A stretch of 64,000 bases of DNA from an uncultured Chloroflexia bacterium (GCA_963779375.1 CAVZXW010000024.1:142734-206733); one strand, 5' to 3'. Shown: positions 53,423-64,000, counted from the first letter of the stretch. The notes: a model not told the origin generated them from the sequence alone. Made by a program: numbers and translations.

Positions 53423-54499
53423 ATGGACGAGATCTCGCTGGGCGTCCCCCCGTCCTCGGACGTCCTGCTCGACGTGCGCGACCTGCGCACGCACTTCAAG
53501 GTCATGGACGGCACCGTGCCCGCCGTGGACGGGGTGAGCTTCCAGGTGCGCCGTGGCGAGACGCTCGGCGTGGTGGGGGAATCGGGCTGCGGCAAGAGCG
53601 TCACCGCGCTCACCATCATGCGCCTCATCGAGATCCCGCCGGGCCAGATCGTGGGCGGCGAGATCTGGTTCGACGGGCGCGACGTCTTGCGCCTCTCCAA
53701 CGAGGAGATGCTCGACGTGCGCGGGGCCGAGATGGCCATGATCTTCCAGGAGCCCATGACGTCGCTCAACCCGGTGCTGACGGTGGGCGACCAGATCGCC
53801 GAGGCCGTGGTGGCCCACAAGAAGGTGAGCCACGCGGCGGCCCGCGAGCGGGCCATCGAGATGCTCCGCCTGGTGGGCATCCCCGAGGCGCAGCGCCGCG
53901 TGCGCCAGTACCCCCACGAGCTGTCCGGCGGCATGCGCCAGCGCGTCATGATCGCCCTGGCCCTCTCCTGCGATCCCAAGCTCCTCATCGCCGACGAGCC
54001 CACCACCGCGCTCGACGTGACGATCCAGGCCCAGATACTGGAGCTCATCCGCCACGTGCAGCAGGAGACCGGCACGGCGCTCCTGCTCATCACCCACGAC
54101 CTGGGCGTGGTGGCCGAGACCGTGCAGCGCCTGGTCGTCATGTACGCCGGCAAGGTCGTCGAGACGGGCACGGTCGAGGAGGTGCTGCGCGCCCCGCAGC
54201 ATCCCTACACCGAGGGCCTCCTCGCCTCCATCCCCTCCAAGACCATGCGCGGCAGCCGCCTCAACGTCATCAAGGGCAGCGTGCCCAACCCCTTCCGCAT
54301 GCCCGTGGGCTGCCGCTTCCATCCCCGCTGCCCCTACGCCTTCGCGCCCTGCCCCGACCACGAGCCCCCGCTCGACGCGCAGGGCCATCCCGAGCGCAGG
54401 GTGGCCTGCTGGCTGCATACGAATTCGATCGTGCCGGCCGCGCGCGCGCCGCGGCACGCGGACCCGGCCCCGGTCCTGGAGCGGGTCCGGACGTCCTGA
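53423..54499 (+). CDS. Oligopeptide/dipeptide ABC ATP-binding protein (OppD/DppD-like)
   Basis: [40 protein letters not shown]. Confidence 0.92.
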
Positions 54500-54618
54500 G
54501 GGTCGGTCGACCCCCGCGGCACCGGCGGGGCCGTCGTGTCGCACCACCGGGTGGGAGACACGGCTGGTGCGTGCCGCAAGCCGGGCGCTCCTCCACTCGT
54601 ACCGCGGGAGATGGGAGA

Positions 54619-54664
54619 TCTCACATCTTCGCCCAAGGCGTGTCACATGGCACGGCCCTAGCGT
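54619..54664 (+). promoter_or_regulatory. Candidate OmpR/PhoB-type direct repeats and -10
   Basis: TCTCACAT and TGTCACAT 22 bp apart, followed by TAGCGT at 54659. Confidence 0.45.
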
Positions 54665-54706
54665 CGACTCATCCGGACGAACCGGATTCGAACGAGGTCC
54701 CGCCCC

Positions 54707-55045
54707 ATGAACGCCTCCATCCACCGCGTCGGGCTCGCCGTCGCCGCGCTGGCCGTCGTCGTGACGCTGGCCGGCTTCTTCGCGGTCGACGGCTACCTTT
54801 CGGCCCGCGGATCGGTGTCGCAGCAGGTCTCCCCCGCGGTCGCGATGACCGCCCCGCCGTCCTCCTCGGCGTCCCTTCCGCCCGAGGTGGTCTACGTGCG
54901 GCCGGCCCCGTCGCCCAGGGTCATCCACATCACGCAGACTGCCCCGCCGGCACCGCCCAAGGTGGTCCACGTCACCGTGCCGACCGCCGGCGGCGAGGGC
55001 ACCGATGGCGAAGGCGGCGGCGAGCACGACGGCGGTGGTGACTGA
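54707..55045 (+). CDS. Small membrane-tethered Pro-rich protein with acidic Gly/His tail
   Basis: N-terminal TM helix, VVYVRPAP, tail GGEGTDGEGGGEHDGGGD; TGATG coupling to the next gene. Confidence 0.7.
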   Translation: MNASIHRVGLAVAALAVVVTLAGFFAVDGYLSARGSVSQQVSPAVAMTAPPSSSASLPPEVVYVRPAPSPRVIHITQTAPPAPPKVVHVTVPTAGGEGTDGEGGGEHDGGGD

Positions 55046-55507
55046 TGTCCCGCCCGCTCGATCACGAGGAGCCGGCTGCCGGCCGGCCCGCAGCCGCACG
55101 GCCCGCAGCCGCACGGCCCGCACCCGCACGGCCCGCACCCGCACGGCCCGCCGCCGCACGGCCGGCAGCCGCACGGCCCGACCCCACGCGTCTCCGGTTT
55201 GCGCTCGGCGCCGGAGGCCTGGCGACGTTGTCCGCGCTCGTGACCGCCATCGTGACGCCTGCCACGGGCGCCCCCGCGACTCCGACGGGGCCGGGCGCAG
55301 CGACCGCCACGGGAACGCCAACGACGATCGCCGCCCAGCGTCCGGTCCAGTACGTGCAGCTGGCCCCCGGGCAGACGCCGCCTCCGGGCGCCGACGGTCA
55401 TCGACGCGAAGGCACCGAAGCCCATCACGATCGTGACCCGCGTGCCCGCCCCGGCGCCGCAGACGGTCGTCGTGCGGACGACCCAGTCCGGGAAGCCGAT
55501 CCCGTGA
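55045..55507 (+). CDS. Small membrane-tethered Pro/Thr-rich protein ending VVRTTQSGKPIP; one extra base near 55393
   Basis: Removing one G gives ..PPPGATVIDAKAPKPITIVTRVPAPAPQTVVVRTTQSGKPIP*, whose stop overlaps the apbE GTG (GTGA). Confidence 0.6.
55075..55180 (+). repeat. 15-bp tandem repeat encoding (A/P)ARPA about 7 times
   Basis: GCACGGCCCGCA(G/C)CC units. Confidence 0.9.
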
Positions 55508-56562
55508 TCGCCGTGGACACCCTGGCGAGAACGGCGGAGCCGCGCTCCGCAACGGCCGGGCGAGCGCAGCCCCGCCCCGTCCCGGTGGTGCTCGCGCCGA
55601 TCGCGCCGCTGTCGGTGGCGACCGCCGCGATGGGAGGGCGTCTCACGGTGCACATCGACCCAACGGCCCCCTCCCCCGCCACGGGTTGCTCGAGCAACGA
55701 CATCAGGCCCGGCGAGTCCGAGGAACGGGCGCGCCGCGACGCCGGGCGCGTCCTCGCCCGCGTCGGACGATGGGCCGGCCGCCTGAGCCGGCACCTCCCG
55801 GAATCCGAGCTCTCACTCCTGAACGCCGATCCGCAGCCGGCCGTCCACGTCGGGCCCACGCTCGCGGCGGCATTGCGTTCCGGACTCGGCGCCGCCGAGG
55901 CAAGCGGCGGCCTGGTCGACATCACGCTGCTCGACGCCCGCCTCGCCGCCGAGGGCCTGGTACCGGCGCCTCCCCGGTTCGGGTCCCGTGCCTGGGACAT
56001 CGAACCCGGCCCGGGGCCGGGGGCGACCGTCCGGCGGGAGCCGGGCGTCCACTTCGACCTCGGCGGCGTGGCCAAGGGCTGGCTCGCCGATCGAGCGCTC
56101 GCCCTGCTTCAGGGGTGGTCGAGCGTCGTGGTGGATGCAGACGGCGATCTCGCGATCCGTGCCGCTCCCGGGAGTCGCTGGGCAGTCGCCGTCGACGACC
56201 CCAGGGCCGAGGGCGCGTCTCTGGCGATCCTGGCCCTCTCCGCATCCCGGGATGGCTGGGGCGAGCGCTGGGGCGTGGCCACGTCGGGCACGTCGATCCA
56301 TCGCTGGCAGCGGGACGGCGTCGCGAGCCATCACCTCATCGACCCGCGGACCGGGGCACCGGCCATCACGGACGTCGTCCAGGCCACGGTGATCTGCGCA
56401 TCGGCGCTGCGCGCGGAGGCCCTGGCGAAGACGGCCGTGATCCTCGGATCCGTGAACGGGCTGGCCATGCTCGAGCGCGTCGGGGTTCGGGGAGCAATCG
56501 TGCTGACCGATCGGGGGGACGTCCTCGCCTTGCCGTCCACACTGTCGCTTCTGGCCGACTGA
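55504..56562 (+). CDS. apbE: FAD:protein FMN transferase
   Basis: AMG, LSRH..SELS.LN, DLGGVAKG, ADGD, VATSG, HHLIDPRTG, AEALAK. Confidence 0.9.
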   Translation: MIAVDTLARTAEPRSATAGRAQPRPVPVVLAPIAPLSVATAAMGGRLTVHIDPTAPSPATGCSSNDIRPGESEERARRDAGRVLARVGRWAGRLSRHLPESELSLLNADPQPAVHVGPTLAAALRSGLGAAEASGGLVDITLLDARLAAEGLVPAPPRFGSRAWDIEPGPGPGATVRREPGVHFDLGGVAKGWLADRALALLQGWSSVVVDADGDLAIRAAPGSRWAVAVDDPRAEGASLAILALSASRDGWGERWGVATSGTSIHRWQRDGVASHHLIDPRTGAPAITDVVQATVICASALRAEALAKTAVILGSVNGLAMLERVGVRGAIVLTDRGDVLALPSTLSLLAD

Positions 56563-56575
56563 TGCGAGCGATCCG

Positions 56576-57511
56576 ATGAGCCAACCGATCGACCTGCCGC
56601 CTCGGCGGGTCCTCGCGCCCGCGGAGCCGGCGGGGGCCGCCGCCGCGACGGCCTTGATACCTGTGCCCTCCGACAGGCCCGCACCGGGGCCACGGTCCGC
56701 GCCCGTGCGGCGGGGACCCACGTACCGCGGGCTTCCGAAGCCCGTCCGCCTGGCGGTCTGGGCCGCTTATGCCGTGGGCATCGGCGTCGCCATCGGGGCC
56801 ACCTTCCCCGTGGCGATGCACCTCGTCGGTGCCGCCGCGGCCCTCGCTCCCGGCAGACTCGCCTGGTATGCGGTCCGCGCGACCGGCTTCCTCGCCTACT
56901 TCGCCGTGGCCGGGTCCGTGATCTACGGCCTGTTGCTGTCGACGAAGCTGCTCGACGCGATCGCCCACCGGCCGGTCAGCTTCGCGCTGCACAAGGACCT
57001 GGCGCTCGTCGGGCTCGCCCTGTCGGGACTGCACGGGATCCTGCTCCTGGCCGATCACACGTTCACGTTCACCCTCGCCGCGATCGCCATCCCGTTCGCC
57101 TCGCCGTACGCGCCGGCCGCCGTCGGCGTCGGACAGCTCGCGTTCTACGTGATCGCGATCGTCACGGGCAGCTTCTACGTCCGCCGCCGCATCGGCCAGC
57201 GAGCGTGGCGGCTCATCCATTACCTCACGTTCGCCGGCTTCCTCGGCGTGACCGCACATGGCATCGGGTCGGGGTCGGACAGCGGCGCGCCATGGGCCGC
57301 CTGGTCCTACCTGGGCCCCATGGCGGCCATCGTCTTCCTGTCCGTCTATCGCCTGGTCGTGAGCATCGCGGGCCGCCGCGACGCCGCGTTCCACCCGGCC
57401 AGCTCGGCCGGTGGGCCACGTGCGTTCGAGCGCACGTCGTCCGCCGTGCCGATCGCGGCCTCTCGAGCCACCACCCCCGGCCTCGCGGCAGAACGGTCCG
57501 CGGAGCCCTGA
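56576..57511 (+). CDS. Ferric-reductase-like / MsrQ-like di-heme b membrane protein
   Basis: WYAVRATG; four intramembrane His (LHKD, LHGI, IHYL, AHGI); WRLIH; GSD. Confidence 0.85.
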   Translation: MSQPIDLPPRRVLAPAEPAGAAAATALIPVPSDRPAPGPRSAPVRRGPTYRGLPKPVRLAVWAAYAVGIGVAIGATFPVAMHLVGAAAALAPGRLAWYAVRATGFLAYFAVAGSVIYGLLLSTKLLDAIAHRPVSFALHKDLALVGLALSGLHGILLLADHTFTFTLAAIAIPFASPYAPAAVGVGQLAFYVIAIVTGSFYVRRRIGQRAWRLIHYLTFAGFLGVTAHGIGSGSDSGAPWAAWSYLGPMAAIVFLSVYRLVVSIAGRRDAAFHPASSAGGPRAFERTSSAVPIAASRATTPGLAAERSAEP

Positions 57512-57526
57512 ACCCTGGAGGACGAC

Positions 57527-57817
57527 ATGTCGTACGTCATCGCCGAGCCGTGCGTCGACCACATGGACCAGTCCTGCGTGGCCGTGTGCCCGGTCGACTG
57601 CATCACCGCCGATCCCGGGATCGACCGCAAGTTCTACATCGACCCCGACGGGTGCATCGACTGCGGGTCATGCGAGCAGGCATGCCCGAACGCCGCCATC
57701 TTCCGGATCGACCAGCTGCCGGCCGAATGGGCGTCCTACGCGGGCATCGATACCGCCTTCTACCGGAGTCCGCAGTCTGCCCGGGAGGGCGTGGACGCCC
57801 TGTGTCCAGCGGCATGA
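57527..57817 (+). CDS. Ferredoxin (7Fe FdxA type)
   Basis: YVIAEPCVD..D.SCVAVCPVDCI and CIDCGSCEQACP; GGAGG SD. Confidence 0.92.
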   Translation: MSYVIAEPCVDHMDQSCVAVCPVDCITADPGIDRKFYIDPDGCIDCGSCEQACPNAAIFRIDQLPAEWASYAGIDTAFYRSPQSAREGVDALCPAA

Positions 57818-58656
57818 CGACGGGGCCCGCACCCCTCGGGTCGCGCGTTGCCTCGACCACGCCCGGGATCGTCGGGCTCACGACGGCGGGACCGAATGCG
57901 ACGCTGGTCCGACGGATCGACCTGACACCGGCCGTCGCGCGCTTCATCGTGAGCCCCGACCAGGGCGTGCCGGCATTCGCACCCGGCCAGTACTTCGCGC
58001 TGGGGCTCACGCTCGATGGCCACGTCGTGCAGCGTCCCTACTCGGCCGCTTCGCCGCCCGGCCCGGGGCGGTACCTGGAGTTCCTGATCCGCCGCGTGCC
58101 CGGGGGCAGGCTCACGCCGGCCCTGTGGGAGCTGGGCGCGGGCGCCCGGCTGCGCCTCGGCAGGCCGAAAGGGCTGTTCGGCCTTGACCCCGGCGAGCGG
58201 CGAACCCACCTGTTCGTGGCGACCGGCACGGGCCTCGCCCCGACGCTGTCGATGCTCGGATCGCTCCGGGCGTCCGTGGGTCCGGGGATGTCGACGTCCT
58301 GGCGCGCCGTGGTCGTCCACGGAACATCGTCGGTCTCCGAACTCGCGTACCGGGACCGGCTCGAGCGCTGGGCGAGGGCTGACCCGCGAGTGGCCTATGT
58401 GCCGGTCGTCTCACAGCCCGGTCTCCCGGACAATGCGTCCTGGAACGGGGCAACCGGTCGGGTGGACGGGCTGGTTGGCGCGATCTGCGATCGGTACGGG
58501 CTCGATGCGGGCGGCACGGTCGCCTACGTGTGCGGCAACCCGGACGCCATCGCATCCGTGACCCGCGCGCTCGCGGCTCGCGGCTTCCCGCCCGGTGCGA
58601 TCGTGACCGAGCAGTACTGGACGGCATCCGGACCGCAGCCGACACGATCCGCATGA
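57814..58656 (+). CDS. Ferredoxin-NADP+ reductase family flavoprotein
   Basis: FAPGQY, RPYS, GRLT, ATGTGLAP, YVCGNP, EQYW. Confidence 0.9.
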   Translation: MTTGPAPLGSRVASTTPGIVGLTTAGPNATLVRRIDLTPAVARFIVSPDQGVPAFAPGQYFALGLTLDGHVVQRPYSAASPPGPGRYLEFLIRRVPGGRLTPALWELGAGARLRLGRPKGLFGLDPGERRTHLFVATGTGLAPTLSMLGSLRASVGPGMSTSWRAVVVHGTSSVSELAYRDRLERWARADPRVAYVPVVSQPGLPDNASWNGATGRVDGLVGAICDRYGLDAGGTVAYVCGNPDAIASVTRALAARGFPPGAIVTEQYWTASGPQPTRSA

Positions 58657-58738
58657 GCGGGGACCGGATCCGCCCGTGCCGGTTGCCGGGGCCATACGGA
58701 CGTTGACGCGGAGCCGGATCGTCCCAAGCATTGCGCAG

Positions 58739-59413
58739 ATGCGAGTGCTGGTCGTCGAGGACGAGATCCGGATGGGCGAGCTCATCCGGCGCGTGCTCCT
58801 CGCGGAGCGGTACGCGGTCGACCTCGCCGAGGACGGTGTCGGGGCACTGGCCCTGGCGCGGGAGGGCGGTTACGACGCGATCGTGCTGGACCGCATGCTG
58901 CCGGACCTCGACGGCACGGAGGTGCTCCAGGTGCTGCGGGCGCGGGGCGACCGCACGCCCGTGCTGATGCTGACGGCGCTGGGATCCGTGGAGCAGCGCG
59001 TCGCGGGTCTCGACGCCGGCGCCGATGACTACCTGTCCAAGCCCTTCGCGTTCTCGGAACTGCTGGCTCGCCTGCGCGCACTCGGCCGCCGGCCCGTGCC
59101 GGGCGTGCAGGAACGGCTCGTCGCGGGCGACATCGAACTGGACGAGCAGCGGCACGTGGTGCGCGTGGCGGGCTCGACCGTGGAGCTGACGGCCCGCGAG
59201 TTCGCGCTGCTCGCGTTCCTGATCCGGAACGCGGGGCGCGTCCTCAGCCGGAGGCAGATCCTGGACGCGGTCTGGGGAGCGGAGCCGGACGTGTATTCGA
59301 ACGTGGTCGACCTGTACGTCTCGTACCTGCGGCGGAAGCTGGCGACACTGGGGCGGGAGGAACGCCTGCGCACGGTGCGGGGCGTGGGATACACGCTGGA
59401 CGGGACGGACTGA
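58739..59413 (+). CDS. OmpR-family response regulator
   Basis: VVEDE, LDRMLP, GADDYLSKPF, LTAREF, TVRGVGY. Confidence 0.93.
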   Translation: MRVLVVEDEIRMGELIRRVLLAERYAVDLAEDGVGALALAREGGYDAIVLDRMLPDLDGTEVLQVLRARGDRTPVLMLTALGSVEQRVAGLDAGADDYLSKPFAFSELLARLRALGRRPVPGVQERLVAGDIELDEQRHVVRVAGSTVELTAREFALLAFLIRNAGRVLSRRQILDAVWGAEPDVYSNVVDLYVSYLRRKLATLGREERLRTVRGVGYTLDGTD

Positions 59414-59417
59414 CGGA

Positions 59418-60716
59418 GTGACCGATCCGACCGAGCGGGTGATCGCGGCAACCCGGCGACGGCTCGCCCTCCTCACGCTCGGCCTCCTCACCGCGCTGCT
59501 CATCGCGATGGGGATCGCCACGACGGTCGTGGCGATGGCGCAGCTCGACGGCGCCACGGATTCGGCGCTGCGGGCGTCGGCCCAGGGCGTGCTCTCCTCG
59601 CTGGAAGGGCATCTTCCCGGCGCGACCGCGGGCGAGAGCGAGGCGGAGACGGCAGACGAGCCTGTCGGATCGGCGGACACGTTCGCGCTCGTCCTGGATC
59701 CGTCGGGGAACGTCGTCCAGAACCCGCGCAATGTCCACCTGTCCGGCCTGCCCGACCGGTCGGCACTGGCGGCGGCGATGGCGGGCGGCTCGGACCTCCG
59801 GACGACGACCGCGGGCGGGGTGCCCGTGCGTCTGCTCACGCTGGCGATCCGCCCGTCCGACGGAACCAGACCTGTCGGCGCGGTCCAGGCCGGGCTCGTC
59901 CTCACGCTGCACGACCAGCAGGCATCGGACCTGGTGCGGACGATCGCCCTGGTGGGACTGGGCGGACTGGCGGCCGCGGCGCTGCTCGCGCTCCTGCTCA
60001 CGGGCCGCGCCCTCGTTCCGATCCGGGCAGCGTTCGCCACCGAACGGCGGTTCGTGGCCGCCGCGTCCCACGAACTGCGCACCCCCGCGGCGATCATCCA
60101 CGCATCCGCGGAGGTGCTCCAGCGCGAGAACCTCGTCAGGGAGGACGGCTCCTCGCTCGTTTCCGGCATCGTCGCGGAAGCCGATCGCCTGGGCCGGCTG
60201 GTCGCGGGCCTGCTCGCCCTCTCGGCATCTCGTGCGGACCCGGACGCCGTCCACGTGGAGCCGCTCGACCTGGGTGCTCTCGCAGCCGACGCCGGCGCGC
60301 GGACCGGGGCCCTGGCCGCCGAGCGGGGATGCGCGATCGCGGTGACGCCCGATCCGGTTCCGGTCCTCCCGGTCCTGGGTGATCCGGACCGGCTGCTCCA
60401 GGTGCTGCTGGTGCTGCTCGACAACGCCACCCGCCACTCGCCCGCGGGGGCCGACGTGACGCTCGACATGGGCCGCCGCGATGGACGTGCGTGGGTATCC
60501 GTCGCCGACCGGGGCCCGGGCGTTCCCGCGGCCGACAGGGAGCGGATATTCGAGCCCTTCGCTCGTGCCGTGGGGGCGCGCGGGCGCCGGCCCGAGGGCA
60601 CCGGGCTCGGGCTGGCCGTGGCCCGGACGCTGGTCGAGCGACACCACGGGTCCATCGAGGTCGAGGATCGGCCCGGCGGAGGGGCCGCGTTCACGGTATC
60701 CCTGCCGCTGCGCTGA
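59418..60716 (+). CDS. Sensor histidine kinase (2 TM)
   Basis: ASHELRTP, LLDNA, DRGPG, GTGLGL. Confidence 0.92.
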   Translation: MTDPTERVIAATRRRLALLTLGLLTALLIAMGIATTVVAMAQLDGATDSALRASAQGVLSSLEGHLPGATAGESEAETADEPVGSADTFALVLDPSGNVVQNPRNVHLSGLPDRSALAAAMAGGSDLRTTTAGGVPVRLLTLAIRPSDGTRPVGAVQAGLVLTLHDQQASDLVRTIALVGLGGLAAAALLALLLTGRALVPIRAAFATERRFVAAASHELRTPAAIIHASAEVLQRENLVREDGSSLVSGIVAEADRLGRLVAGLLALSASRADPDAVHVEPLDLGALAADAGARTGALAAERGCAIAVTPDPVPVLPVLGDPDRLLQVLLVLLDNATRHSPAGADVTLDMGRRDGRAWVSVADRGPGVPAADRERIFEPFARAVGARGRRPEGTGLGLAVARTLVERHHGSIEVEDRPGGGAAFTVSLPLR

Positions 60717-60803
60717 TCGTGGCCAGCGCCCCGACCGTGGCGCCATGCGGCCGATCGTGTGGCGCGAGGGCCCGTGTCCCGCCGGCGCTCCGGCAGGGGC
60801 GGC

Positions 60804-61283
60804 TCAGGGCTGTGTGACGGCCTCCGGTGGGGCCGACGGCTCCCCGATCAGGAGGGTCAGCAGGGCGCGCTCCTCCTGTTCGAGGTGGGACGAGAGGACG
60901 GCGTGGAGCGCATAGAGGTGGGCCCGCAGGTCCGCGACGTGCCGGCGCGCCGGATCGGACTGCAGGACGGCGCAGTCGGCCTCGAGCACGGCGATGTTGC
61001 CGCGGATCTGTTCGTGCTGGACGCGCAGGAACCGCGTCGCCCACGTCGTGGCCGCGAGACGGTCGGTCTCGGGGAAGCAGACCTGCTCCTCCCACTCCAT
61101 GTGGGTCCGGAGCGTCTTCGTCAGTTCGTCGAGCAGACTCCGCGCGACACTTGCGAGGCTCGACGTCTCGAGGGTTCCGGCCACCTCGGCGGTCGTCTCG
61201 ATGCGGGTGAGCGCGCGCTCGAGCGAGCGATGCGCACGGTCGAGGATATGGCGTTCGACCATGGCGACGTGGTGCTCTGTCAT
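60804..61283 (-). CDS. Hemerythrin-like (HHE) domain protein
   Basis: AHRSL, HMEWEE, QHEQI, HLEQEE. Confidence 0.8.
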   Translation of the reverse strand: MTEHHVAMVERHILDRAHRSLERALTRIETTAEVAGTLETSSLASVARSLLDELTKTLRTHMEWEEQVCFPETDRLAATTWATRFLRVQHEQIRGNIAVLEADCAVLQSDPARRHVADLRAHLYALHAVLSSHLEQEERALLTLLIGEPSAPPEAVTQP

Positions 61284-61488
61284 CGGTGCGCGATTCCTCG
61301 TCCTGCAACGCTGCCGGCCAACGCTACCCGACACCGGCGGCGGCGCAGAGAGGCCTTTGGCACGAGGGAGGCGGGCACGCGATCCGCGGGCGGGGCCGAC
61401 TGGCACGGACGCCGACCCGGCACACCCGGTGCGTCAGCGGACGCACGTCCCTCGCGGCGCCGGGCGGGCGCCGCCGCGATCACCCGGA

Positions 61489-63057
61489 TCAGGTCCCGTA
61501 CGTTGCCGGCACGACCGTCTCGATGAGCAGCTTCTGGACCTCGTCGGCCTGCTCGAAGGCGACCGAGTGAGCCGCGCCCAGGAAGGTGACCCGCTGCTTG
61601 ACCGGCGCGACGAGCTGGTCGAACCACTCGATCGCGAGGTCACGCCGGCCCGCCAGTTCGGCGGCGCCATCGAGGAGGTACACGGGAACGTCCAGGCTCG
61701 GGACGTCGCGACGGAAGTCCACGGAGTACAGCTGCGGGTACATGACCGCGAACGTGTCGGCGAGGCCGCGCAGGACGTTCGTCTTCTCGACGAGCGTGTA
61801 TTCGGAACCGAGCATGCCGTAGAGCCCGACGCCGGACGATGCGCCGCGACTCTCGTACCCGGCCGACGGCGTGTACGGCTCGTACAGGTAGTCGTACCAC
61901 CCAGCGACGAGCACGTTCGCGAACGGGAAGTCGCGGTAGGGCGGGCCGCCGAGGCCCCGGAGGTTCGACGCGAGCGCTCCGTCGCCGACTCGATCGGCGT
62001 AGGCCACCAGGTCCGCGTAGATGCGCCGGTCCGTCTCGAGAACGTCCACCATCTGGCCGCTCCCCAGGTAGGCGTAGTAGAGATCGGGGCGCCGCTGGAC
62101 GGCGAGGACGCCGAGGATCGTCCCCCAGGACTCGCCCATCAGGTAGATCTTCCGCTCGCCGAAGCGCTGGCGCAGGTAGTCGGTCAGCTCGATCGTGTCG
62201 GACACCGCCTGGTCCAGCGTCATGGTCGAGAGCGGGTCGAGCGCCGCGTAGGACTTGCCGTTGCCTCGCTGATCCCAGTCGACGAACACGAAGTCCCGGA
62301 CCCACCCCGACGCGAGGGCGCGTGAATACGCCAGGTCGGACTGGCCCGGGCCGCCGGACAGGTACAGGAGCACGGGCTTGTCAGGGCTCGCCGCGCGGAT
62401 CATCACGGCCTGGTCGTGGCCGCCGAGCGCGACGGTCGCCAGCTCGGCGAGGCTTCCCGGGATCGAGGTGCCGTCGGCGCCGAGGACCGGAGGCGCCGAG
62501 GCCGGCGCTACCACCACCAGCGTCAGCGCGAGCGTCGCGAGCGCACCGATGCCGGTCGGGGTCTGTCGTAGCAGACCGCGCATGCGCCCGTGCGCGGCTC
62601 CGCCGGTGGACGCGCGCAGACGTCGCGAGACGATGAACCGCACGAGGCTGCCACTGGCGATCATCGGCAGGAACACGAGGAGACCGTGGAACCCGCGGGC
62701 AACGACCAGCATGACGACGGCGACCGTGCTGTCGACGCGGATGGCGCCGACCGATGGCCCCGCCCACGAGGGTCGCGCCAGCTCGTAGCAGACGACGTAG
62801 GCGACCGCGGCGAGCAGCATCGCCCGGCGCCGGGGCCACGTCAGGCCGGCGACGATGCCGATCACCGCCCCCGTCGCCATCACGACGAGTGCCTGCGCGG
62901 TCGTGGCGGGCCCCCTCGGCATCGCGATCGCGGAGAGCGCGGCCGTCGCACCACTGGCGATCGCGACGACGGCCGGCCCTGACCAGGGGCGCTGCCCCAG
63001 GCGCACGGCAGCGTGCCGCATGCCGGCGAAACGGCCCGGCGGCGTCGGAGCGATCAT
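61489..63057 (-). CDS. Membrane-anchored alpha/beta hydrolase (proline iminopeptidase-like)
   Basis: About 5 TM helices, then LSGGPG, WDQRGNGKS, GESWG, AHS. Confidence 0.85.
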   Translation of the reverse strand: MIAPTPPGRFAGMRHAAVRLGQRPWSGPAVVAIASGATAALSAIAMPRGPATTAQALVVMATGAVIGIVAGLTWPRRRAMLLAAVAYVVCYELARPSWAGPSVGAIRVDSTVAVVMLVVARGFHGLLVFLPMIASGSLVRFIVSRRLRASTGGAAHGRMRGLLRQTPTGIGALATLALTLVVVAPASAPPVLGADGTSIPGSLAELATVALGGHDQAVMIRAASPDKPVLLYLSGGPGQSDLAYSRALASGWVRDFVFVDWDQRGNGKSYAALDPLSTMTLDQAVSDTIELTDYLRQRFGERKIYLMGESWGTILGVLAVQRRPDLYYAYLGSGQMVDVLETDRRIYADLVAYADRVGDGALASNLRGLGGPPYRDFPFANVLVAGWYDYLYEPYTPSAGYESRGASSGVGLYGMLGSEYTLVEKTNVLRGLADTFAVMYPQLYSVDFRRDVPSLDVPVYLLDGAAELAGRRDLAIEWFDQLVAPVKQRVTFLGAAHSVAFEQADEVQKLLIETVVPATYGT

Positions 63058-63291
63058 GCGCTGTCTCCCTCCCGCGGGACGCCCGGTCACCCCCCTGCAG
63101 GTCCCGAGGGTCCCGGGCCGTGCCGGCGCCTCGCAATGGCTGGCCGGCCTGTTTCGCCCGCCGGTCGGCCCCCGTGCGCCGGCCGGCAGTACCCCGAAGC
63201 AGGAAGGGGCAGGAAGACTCTGTCGCGGGACCGCGCACACGCGCCACCATCGGCTCGGAGGGCACCATCCGCGCCGCAGGGAGGGCACAGC

Positions 63292-63750
63292 ATGTCGCTC
63301 GTGCAGGGCAGGGCCGCATCCGCGATCCGCCGCCTCTGGCACGAGGAGAAGGCGGAAGTCACCCAGGTCGCCGCCCGTGTCTCGCTCGTCGCGAACGGCG
63401 TGACCAACGTGAGCGCGGCACTCGTCGGCGGCAGGGCGCGGGGCCTGCTCGAGCTGCTCGAGCACGAGGTGCTCCCCTACCTCGACTGGGAGGAGACGAT
63501 CGTCCATCCGGTCCTGGACCGCCTCGTCGGCACCTCGCGGGCCAGCCGTGCCCTGCGTGCCCAGCTCGAACAGGTTCGCGTCGCGATCGGGCAGGTCCAG
63601 GCGGACTGGGACGGACTGCGCGGGCCGCCGACGGCCCGCCAGCTGGTCGACCTGCGGATGCATCTCCGGCGCCTCGGCGCGATCATGGCCGCGCACCTGG
63701 AGCAGGAGGAGCGGGCGCTGGCCCCCGTCCTCGCCGTCGCCCGAGCCTGA
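63292..63750 (+). CDS. Hemerythrin-like domain protein, partly degenerate
   Basis: Paralogue of 60804-61283: YLDWEE, QLEQV, HLEQEERAL; AGGAGG SD. Confidence 0.72.
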   Translation: MSLVQGRAASAIRRLWHEEKAEVTQVAARVSLVANGVTNVSAALVGGRARGLLELLEHEVLPYLDWEETIVHPVLDRLVGTSRASRALRAQLEQVRVAIGQVQADWDGLRGPPTARQLVDLRMHLRRLGAIMAAHLEQEERALAPVLAVARA

Positions 63751-63841
63751 TGTCCGGCGCCCGCGGGCCGGGTGCGTAAGCTTGTGGCCGGGACCGGCCG
63801 GCGCGATGTCGCCGGCGACGATCAGGAGGCGCGACTCGTCC

Positions 63842-64000
63842 ATGAGCGGCAGCGACAGGTTCGGGGGGCGCCGGCTGGCGCAGTCGATCGGGCGCGTGGG
63901 AGTGTGGAGCTGGGCGCTCCAGCGCATGTCGGCCGCCGACGCGGGCGCGACGGCGCGCGGGTTCGAGGCGCTCGGCTACCCGGCGGTCTGGATCCCCGAG
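63842..64000 (+). CDS. LLM-class (probably F420-dependent) oxidoreductase, 5' fragment
   Basis: AGGAGG SD; MSGSDRF..IGRVGVWS..FEALGYPAVWIPE runs off the window. Confidence 0.7.
   Translation, partial: MSGSDRFGGRRLAQSIGRVGVWSWALQRMSAADAGATARGFEALGYPAVWIPE

Follow-up and report, generated by a model that had tools for sequence, protein, structure and literature searches.

Covalent flavinylation by ApbE is an established bacterial way of keeping flavin outside the cell and, to our knowledge, one sequence motif is common to all accepted substrates of this enzyme, which are either folded domains or membrane subunits. The stretch of 64,000 nucleotides (nt) analysed here (hereafter the window), from an uncultured soil Chloroflexia bacterium, contains an apbE gene within a set of eight co-oriented genes (54707–60716, + strand), and the locus raises the question of which protein could receive flavin mononucleotide (FMN) from this ApbE. 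In agreement with a preliminary description of the DNA, Pfam reveals no FMN_bind domain in the eight encoded proteins and none of the eight contains the canonical [ST]GA[ST] motif; DUF2271 and DUF3570 are likewise unmatched among the eight proteins, and the wider pattern [ST]G[AG][ST] does not occur in the window proteins. At the place taken by the FMN_bind gene in canonical clusters, two fold-less, N-terminally anchored proteins, A and B, are encoded, the latter ending in T-T-Q-S-G. We conclude that the operon represents a version, specific to this lineage, of the MsrQ-like flavinylation-associated electron-export module. Judging from sequence comparison, the best single explanation, held tentatively and with somewhat less than even confidence, is that B may act as a non-canonical, fold-less flavin carrier. 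The genes on which this reading turns are as follows.

54707..55045, + strand: gene A, an open reading frame (ORF) for 112 amino acids (aa), with an N-terminal anchor, a Pro-rich arm containing V-V-Y-V / V-I-H-I / V-V-H-V, and an acidic Gly/Asp/Glu/His tail (..GGEHDGGGD).
55045..55392, + strand: 5' part of gene B (from translation and DNA alignment), with an Arg/Pro/Ala-rich cytoplasmic head in which a 15-nt unit recurs in tandem, then a membrane helix and the first of the V-Q-Y-V-Q-L-x-P-G-Q modules.
55391..55507, + strand: 3' part of gene B in the +1 frame, PTVIDAKAPKPITIVTRVPAPAPQTVVVRTTQSGKPIP followed by the stop, with the T-T-Q-S-G tail; reached only on ignoring an extra base near 55391.
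55504..56562, + strand: apbE, 352 aa, of the FAD:protein FMN transferase family (Pfam ApbE, 1.5e-39); its GTG start overlaps the TGA stop of B.

What kind of proteins are A and B? Neither matches a Pfam or NCBIfam family, and the same holds for the small proteins of two sister families described below (C-type and D-type). In a set of 5.8 billion proteins, 151 relatives of B (E ≤0.01) and 91 homologues of A were found, and all names given to them are 'hypothetical protein'; a protein atlas placed A, B and the C-type and D-type proteins in unnamed Chloroflexota clusters only. A profile search with B among 1.84 billion representatives gave 213 matches, of which the 150 listed are 74–276 aa long and carry no fused large domain. 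B consists, in order, of an Arg/Pro-rich head, an anchor helix, one or two modules of the form V-x-Y-V-x-L-x-P-G-Q-x-x-P-P-G-A-x-V-I, and a variable Pro-rich linker with the tail. AlphaFold2 predicted a helix at residues 3–38 of A and 32–55 of B, the rest of both chains being extended without a packed fold (mean predicted local distance difference test, 73 and 72; predicted template-modelling score, 0.28 and 0.23, respectively). Because A and B have no fold beyond this one helix, a covalent link would be needed for either to hold a flavin. By the positive-inside rule, applied to the charged flanks, the N-termini of both proteins would lie inside and the arms outside.

The evidence for B resides mainly in its C-terminal tail (..VVVRTTQSGKVIP). 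The preliminary description had made its proposal depend beforehand on a conserved terminal Thr/Ser motif in homologues, and such a motif is present: 253 of 264 family proteins end in x-x-x-S-G followed by 0–5 residues, and in these 253 the position −3 is Thr in 244, the position −2 is Thr or Arg in 229, and the position −1 is Gln in 250, giving the consensus T-[T/R]-Q-S-G. The 11 proteins without T-x-Q-S-G appear truncated, frame-shifted or changed (one reads KQSA), and in order-level relatives the tail is TKPSG. The motif is kept across variable linkers and also in copies of B that have no adjacent apbE. All five tail codons vary synonymously (for example, Gly, GGC 45 and GGG 9; Ser, TCC 34 and TCG 21), and therefore the constraint acts on the protein. 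We accordingly rejected the alternative that the tail is kept as the ribosome-binding site of apbE, in view of this synonymous variation, the predominance of GGC at the Gly codon, the spacing that varies by 0–5 residues, and the retention of the tail where no apbE follows. Also rejected as a flavin site was a T-G-A-T sequence in the linker of B of a related genome (G009), which is not conserved in the family.

The partner protein A is conserved in another manner. Its N-terminus reads M-x-x-S-[IV]-H-R in 87 of the 91 homologues, a [VIL][VIL]YV strand is present in all 91, and the last 20 residues have an excess of Asp and Glu over Lys and Arg of +1 to +7 (median, 4), with His among them in 52; distant members have very long Asp/Glu/His tails. 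The V-x-Y-V strands that A and B had been said to share hold up as a motif resemblance only, and homology is not supported: in an hhalign profile comparison only the membrane helices could be aligned (28% probability), and A and B are not classed as paralogues here. Complex prediction for full-length A and B, using their own unpaired alignments and without controls, gave a score of 0.02 (mark, 0.32), which speaks neither for nor against pairing. That the two proteins pair, and that the acidic tail of A binds metal, is conjecture.

The claim that the eight genes form a co-oriented operon was borne out in set and order, except that B is not an intact gene in the window, being interrupted by a 1-nt insertion. 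B begins at 55045 in one frame, and its conserved end (..VVVRTTQSGKPIP and the stop codon at 55505–55507) lies in the next frame. The G+C content at third codon positions indicates the frame switch at about 55300–55340 and reaches 0.90–0.97 in the frame of the 3' part. B is a single intact ORF in the relatives G009, G001 and G010, and when the window DNA is aligned with these genes from G009 and G001, one extra A stands after position 55390 (GCCG[A]CGGTC). The G009 gene serves as the reference:

L002:1085-1501: intact B of G009, aligning with window B up to the inserted base.

The reading frame of apbE is offset from that of B by one base, and the insertion therefore joins the two frames, so that the only long ORF as assembled is a 505-aa fusion of the head and anchor of B to ApbE (55045–56562); a metagenomic protein (P0267) resembles such a read-through from the B head into ApbE. 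We ascribe no function to the fusion because any single-base insertion in such GC-rich DNA gives the same result, and a programmed frameshift that fuses B to ApbE was rejected for this reason and because no conserved slippery site was seen by eye at the junctions. Among public sequencing runs, nine with matches contained at most 0.20 of the sampled words; four were assembled, and they yielded no usable piece across 55391, the pieces ending at 55370 and restarting at 55437 (depth in the bin, at most about 2). Related metagenome-assembled genomes also carry conserved genes in two or three in-frame pieces, namely an ABC ATPase (L023:6363-7450), a cytochrome (L038:9363-10137) and an ApbE (L045:8395-9296), which makes an assembly error plausible as the cause of the extra A, the other explanation being a real lesion. 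Upstream of the break, at 55071–55190, about seven units like GGCCCGCAGCCGCAC form the 15-nt tandem repeat, which encodes the P-A-A-A-R repeats of the cytoplasmic head; the array is longer in the window than in G009 and is absent from G001. Among the read contigs, one from run X1 and one from X3 have 3 nt inserted at 55122, and one X3 contig skips 79 nt across the array; the number of repeats therefore probably differs between strains.

Is B tied to ApbE in other genomes? A genome scan detected 63 copies of B at 57 loci, all in metagenome-assembled genomes of Chloroflexota and many in Limnocylindria/Limnocylindrales. A was found by tblastn 5' of 49 of 60 copies, and an A-like ORF was seen by eye in 5 of the 11 misses. 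ApbE lies directly 3' of B in 48 of 58 copies, and the cytochrome (the MsrQ-like membrane protein) is next in 47 of 56. The stop codon of B overlaps the start of apbE (NTGA) in 44 of 47 pairs, a count composed of 42 found by script plus L023 and L035 read from the junction sequences. For the 47 copies with at least 6.5 kilobases (kb) of downstream sequence, the genes present were those for ApbE (40), cytochrome (41), ferredoxin (25), FNR (12), response regulator (34) and histidine kinase (34). The core of A, B, ApbE and cytochrome thus occurs without the kinase pair at 13 of 47 loci, and two unrelated types of regulator and kinase are found across the loci (about 70–86% versus about 40% identity); therefore, it is with ApbE and the cytochrome, and not with the sensor, that A and B are associated. 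The phyletic pattern in 31 relatives agrees with this association, B being present in eight genomes including the source genome (G000), and all seven others having a strong ApbE match (E ≤2e-32). G024 has a strong ApbE match without B, its apbE lying 394 nt from the start of the contig.

Two sister families of small proteins make a substrate that consists of a tail only credible. In the D-type family (L013-like; L013:732-2604, L080–L099), anchored Ser/Thr-rich small proteins are encoded 5' of a leaderless apbE, with the gene for a five-helix MsrQ-like protein next. All 15 ORFs recovered by tblastn (14 of 20 loci) have [ST]-G-[GSV]-S within the last seven residues, and the apbE start lies at most 70 nt downstream in 12 of the 15. 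The tail ..[ST]GGS (for example, ..TTGGS) corresponds to the canonical [S/T]-G-A-[S/T] with Gly in place of Ala, and no canonical motif was found in the D-type cytochrome examined, that of L013. As variations on this layout, L091 has two D-type genes in tandem, and L012 has a YceI-like protein in the D-type place. The C-type family is represented in the source genome itself, in a third ApbE cluster on contig C21 (L016:83-3503), where a divergent response regulator is accompanied by a small anchored Gly/Ser-rich protein (..MMISSGS) before a leaderless apbE; 15 of 15 homologues of this small protein end in [MI]-M-[ITV]-[ST]-S-G-S. A further cluster of the source genome, on contig C26 (L021:605-3179, − strand), encodes a NOX-like protein (Ferric_reduct-FAD_binding_8-NAD_binding_1), an anchored FMN_bind protein with S-G-A-T-Y-T, and a leaderless ApbE. 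In this canonical cluster the stop of the FMN_bind gene overlaps the apbE start, as with B and apbE, and B therefore sits exactly at the place of a known substrate.

From where would B be reduced? The remaining genes of the proposed electron path are those for the cytochrome and its donors.

56576..57511, + strand: MsrQ-like / ferric-reductase-domain membrane protein, with six transmembrane helices, the haem-ligand pairs His139/His153 and His215/His228, and G-A-T at residues 74–76.
57527..57817, + strand: ferredoxin, 96 aa, FdxA-like (Pfam Fer4, 1.4e-10).
57814..58656, + strand: FNR-type flavoprotein reductase, 280 aa (FAD_binding_6, 7.4e-9; NAD_binding_1, 1.9e-12).

The window membrane protein scores 22.5 bits with Ferric_reduct (PF01794; cut-off, 28), and this family matches 25 of 26 orthologues, with a best E-value of 3.4e-9. 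Five His residues, including the pairs His139/153 and His215/228, are invariant in 51 of 51 orthologues and the pairs align with those of the NOX-like protein of the source genome. A search of PDB sequences with the cytochrome returned no meaningful match. The ferredoxin is above the Pfam Fer4 cut-off, and its best NCBIfam match is FdxA_Actino at 94.5 bits (cut-off, 125). The donor genes are interchangeable in relatives: some loci have an FdxA-type ferredoxin with or without FNR, and a NuoF-like protein with a Fer4_15 ferredoxin occurs at 12 of 57 loci, often where ferredoxin and FNR are missing. The chain from NAD(P)H to the outside set out in the preliminary description fits both the domain content and these exchanges. 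Electrons would thus pass from NAD(P)H through FNR and ferredoxin to two b haems and on to the outer face, where ApbE may have attached the accepting FMN covalently to the T-[T/R]-Q-S-G tail of B. Within this tail the Ser would be the likeliest acceptor residue, as the sister tails also suggest, the T-x-x-S spacing being that of [S/T]-G-A-[S/T]. In this picture B would carry its flavin at the end of a Pro-rich leash, and A would be its obligatory partner, able perhaps through an acidic, His-containing tail to bind a cation or the basic B arm. Among possible final acceptors is Fe(III), because a gene for the iron transporter VIT1 lies within 8 kb of B at 5 of 57 loci.

Several observations, set out in this and the following three paragraphs, weigh against B as the flavin acceptor. 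First, the tail departs from the canonical motif D-x-x-[S/T]-G-A-[S/T] in having bulky Gln for Ala, no Asp, and sometimes nothing after Gly. On the other side of the balance, according to the portions of a recent review that deal with this motif (PMC12052999), the changes D to A, G to A and A to V only reduce flavinylation, and 7-residue tags work best at protein termini. Second, 10 of the 58 copies of B have no apbE directly downstream. These are mostly extra tandem A–B pairs or belong to a set of VIT1, A', B', NuoF-like protein and ferredoxin. For instance, L024:6756-10001 and L025:6755-9956 each contain a second A'–B' pair (A', 87 aa) between a VIT1 gene and genes for a NuoF-like protein and a Fer4_15 ferredoxin; this set has no apbE, and some 5 kb upstream the same contig carries a set of ApbE, cytochrome, response regulator and kinase.

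Third, the cytochrome carries possible sites of its own. At the outer end of its first transmembrane helix, a G-A-T sequence is conserved among the 51 orthologues (G74 in 49, A75 in 41, T76 in 48), and the L027/L029/L033 clade alone has D-T-G-A-T-W in the outer loop that follows the second haem helix. The flavin might therefore be attached to the cytochrome itself, at the Thr of the former site or, in some relatives, in the latter loop, with A and B being unflavinylated accessories such as a scaffold, a substrate or metal binder, or an assembly factor; we judge this unlikely, though it is the foremost of the alternatives. G-A-T is the G-A-[S/T] core of the canonical motif, lies by the positive-inside rule on the outer face beside the haem helices, and is encoded in most loci next to apbE. 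Moreover, in the cytochrome of the paralogous C21 cluster a seventh helix precedes a conserved G-[TS]-G-A-T-P, a canonical site besides the tail of the small protein; a tail protein encoded 5' of apbE therefore need not be the sole substrate, or a substrate at all. On the other hand, the Ala position varies in 10 orthologues (Leu or Trp in two, and Ser, Thr or Gly in eight), no Asp or Ser/Thr stands upstream, and conservation at a helix end could reflect packing. The two orthologues that have lost T76 (L029 and L033, reading G-A-A with apbE and B intact) both belong to the only clade with the D-T-G-A-T-W loop, as though the site had moved within the cytochrome, or as though ApbE had been kept for another substrate; loss and gain amount here to one evolutionary event, which decides nothing. 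Nor does a site on the cytochrome explain the near-invariant tail of B and the overlap of its stop with the apbE start. We know of no haem protein with a known ApbE site. NqrB and RnfD, as treated in the relevant parts of Huang et al. (2024, mSystems, PMC11334425), are a precedent for FMN on a membrane protein; their fold is unrelated to that of the cytochrome, and they act in multi-subunit ion pumps.

Fourth, canonical substrates are encoded elsewhere. The only FMN_bind gene above the cut-off in the source genome, that with S-G-A-T, lies on another contig, and each of five other genomes checked has 2–5 ApbE genes and 1–2 FMN_bind genes, at least one of which in G032, G034 and G035 is not beside any apbE. 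ApbE of the operon could then serve a canonical FMN_bind protein or another canonical substrate in trans, A and B being unrelated to flavin, and the source genome is just 62% complete. We consider this improbable. The FMN_bind genes of G000, G031 and G033, and one in G032, have their own adjacent or nearby apbE paralogue, and a housekeeping role would require neither that B and apbE overlap, as they do in 44 of 47 pairs, nor that the two co-occur phyletically.

The last of these points concerns ApbE itself. The enzyme was said to have no signal peptide or lipobox, and by eye what precedes the first strand of the fold is indeed a short hydrophilic stretch in the orthologues of 45 loci, in a mismatch with the predicted outside location of the B tail. 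This mismatch applies equally to every candidate site, and leaderless ApbE proteins are also found in the canonical FMN_bind cluster and in the third cluster (contig C21) of the source genome. Since the FMN_bind protein of the source genome is anchored with its domain outside and yet has a leaderless ApbE, the arrangement seems to be a lineage trait, not a specific argument against B. The missing export signal is likewise compatible with an ApbE-family protein that is not a transferase, but binds or hydrolyses flavin adenine dinucleotide (FAD) in the cytoplasm (flavin trafficking) on behalf of the reductase side, with the tails of A and B serving docking or kinase signalling. In line with this, regulator and kinase genes follow the module at 34 of 47 loci, and the position aligned with residue 55 of the Treponema pallidum protein is His; this position separates pyrophosphatase from transferase behaviour. 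However, a search of the PDB matched 13 solved ApbE/Ftp sequences (E, 1.6e-17 to 1.2e-11; 4XDT/4IFU at 1.6e-17), and DLGGVAKGW, TSG and HHLIDPRTG can be aligned with the corresponding stretches of solved FMN transferases. Furthermore, the review cited above (PMC12052999), in its account of Klebsiella pneumoniae, describes a cytoplasmic ApbE that lacks a signal peptide and is a genuine flavin transferase, and the 13 of 47 loci without a kinase pair, together with the two unrelated regulator and kinase types, separate A and B from the sensor. A non-transferase thus has little probability in our view. The Klebsiella enzyme acts on a soluble cytoplasmic fumarate reductase, whereas every candidate site here is predicted to face outward. 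If B is the carrier, a leaderless ApbE might load FMN derived from cytoplasmic FAD onto the tail of the type-II anchored B before the tail crosses the membrane, so that a ready-made flavin would be exported to take electrons from the outer haem; this route is doubtful and is offered as a suggestion.

The remaining features of the operon and its surroundings concern regulation and neighbouring genes.

54609..54628, no strand assigned: 20-nt palindrome (AGATGGGAGATCTCACATCT), about 90 nt 5' of A.
58676..59413, + strand: OmpR-type response regulator (Pfam Response_reg and Trans_reg_C).
59418..60716, + strand: sensor histidine kinase (HisKA and HATPase_c), with two transmembrane helices around an outer loop of about 130 aa.

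Around the operon, G+C content is 0.70–0.77, so long ORFs occur on either strand, and the genes on the + strand were singled out by their third-position GC. Genes overlap at the junctions of A and B (TGATG), B and apbE (GTGA), and ferredoxin and FNR (ATGA), and the other intergenic gaps are 13 (between apbE and the membrane protein), 15, 19 and 4 nt. The true start of the response regulator is perhaps the ATG at MRVLVVEDE, 21 codons downstream of the called start. The palindrome is a possible operator; closer relatives have, as read by eye, a related inverted repeat (GATGRGA..TCYCATC) at an equal distance 5' of A. In the 260 nt 5' of A at L023–L079, more distant loci, with the other type of response regulator, show by eye three to five CTCCAC-like direct repeats with a spacing of about 11 nt, which look like boxes of the OmpR family. 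A search of 54400–61000 found neither sigma-70-like promoters nor intrinsic terminators. Downstream, a gene for a hemerythrin-domain protein (PF01814, 1.7e-12; 60804–61406, − strand) converges on the kinase gene and, among the 57 loci, is found in the closest relative L023 only. It is followed by an 812-aa ORF (61489–63927, − strand) in which the C-terminal half is an alpha/beta-hydrolase (S33 aminopeptidase-like) and the long N-terminal part is rich in Arg and Pro; the real start of this ORF is probably much further in.

How does the operon compare with known flavinylation systems? The passages on MsrQ-like clusters in the survey by Meheust et al. (2021, eLife, PMC8238504) describe apbE with a PF01794 gene, an FMN_bind gene, often a NAD-binding domain or a NuoF-like partner, and sometimes VIT1. 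The operon has in common with these clusters an apbE beside the gene for a six-helix, two-haem PF01794 protein and the direction proposed there, from NAD(P)H to an extracytosolic flavin; the operon and its relatives also share the cytosolic donors, PF00175 NAD-binding or NuoF-like (PF10589), and the occasional VIT1. It differs from the clusters there described in having the two anchored proteins instead of an FMN_bind, DUF2271 or DUF3570 gene, in encoding reductase and ferredoxin separately and unfused to the cytochrome, in its leaderless ApbE, and in belonging to Chloroflexota, not Actinobacteria. By the same account, a cluster was kept in the survey only if a signal peptide was predicted for one of four kinds of target gene; the ApbE N-termini of the present family are hydrophilic by eye, and the anchored A and B lie outside those four kinds. 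Closer to B is the engineered 'flavin-tag' (Tong et al. 2021, as summarized in PMC12052999), in which a short unstructured terminal peptide suffices as ApbE substrate without a flavin-binding fold; the tag is canonical, whereas the tail of B is T-[T/R]-Q-S-G, tethered to the membrane via a Pro-rich arm, and a candidate acceptor. The FMN_red proteins, in the account of Huang et al. (PMC11334425), carry the flavinylation motif on an unstructured C-terminal extension, as B would; they have a flavin-binding fold, while A and B are without such a domain. Our targeted literature search found no paper that joins Limnocylindria with ApbE and, among the papers listed, none on tail-only ApbE substrates.

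The 2021 survey, in the part that treats such cases, counts several hundred genomes with ApbE and no known substrate (PMC8238504). If B is indeed loaded with FMN in the cytoplasm before export, ApbE would gain a new kind of domain-less substrate, with T-x-Q-S-G as its non-canonical site, and there would be a new answer to how FAD is supplied for extracytoplasmic flavinylation; together with the sister tails ..[ST]GGS and ..SSGS, many 'orphan' ApbE genes would be accounted for. The leaderless ApbE facing outward-pointing sites, common to all three ApbE clusters of the source genome, is a real puzzle in any case. Should the tails of the B and D types be real acceptors, a flavin carrier could be just an anchor, a linker and a five-residue tag, the specificity of ApbE would be wider than the textbook motif, and a set of MsrQ-like electron-export modules in soil Chloroflexota would become interpretable.

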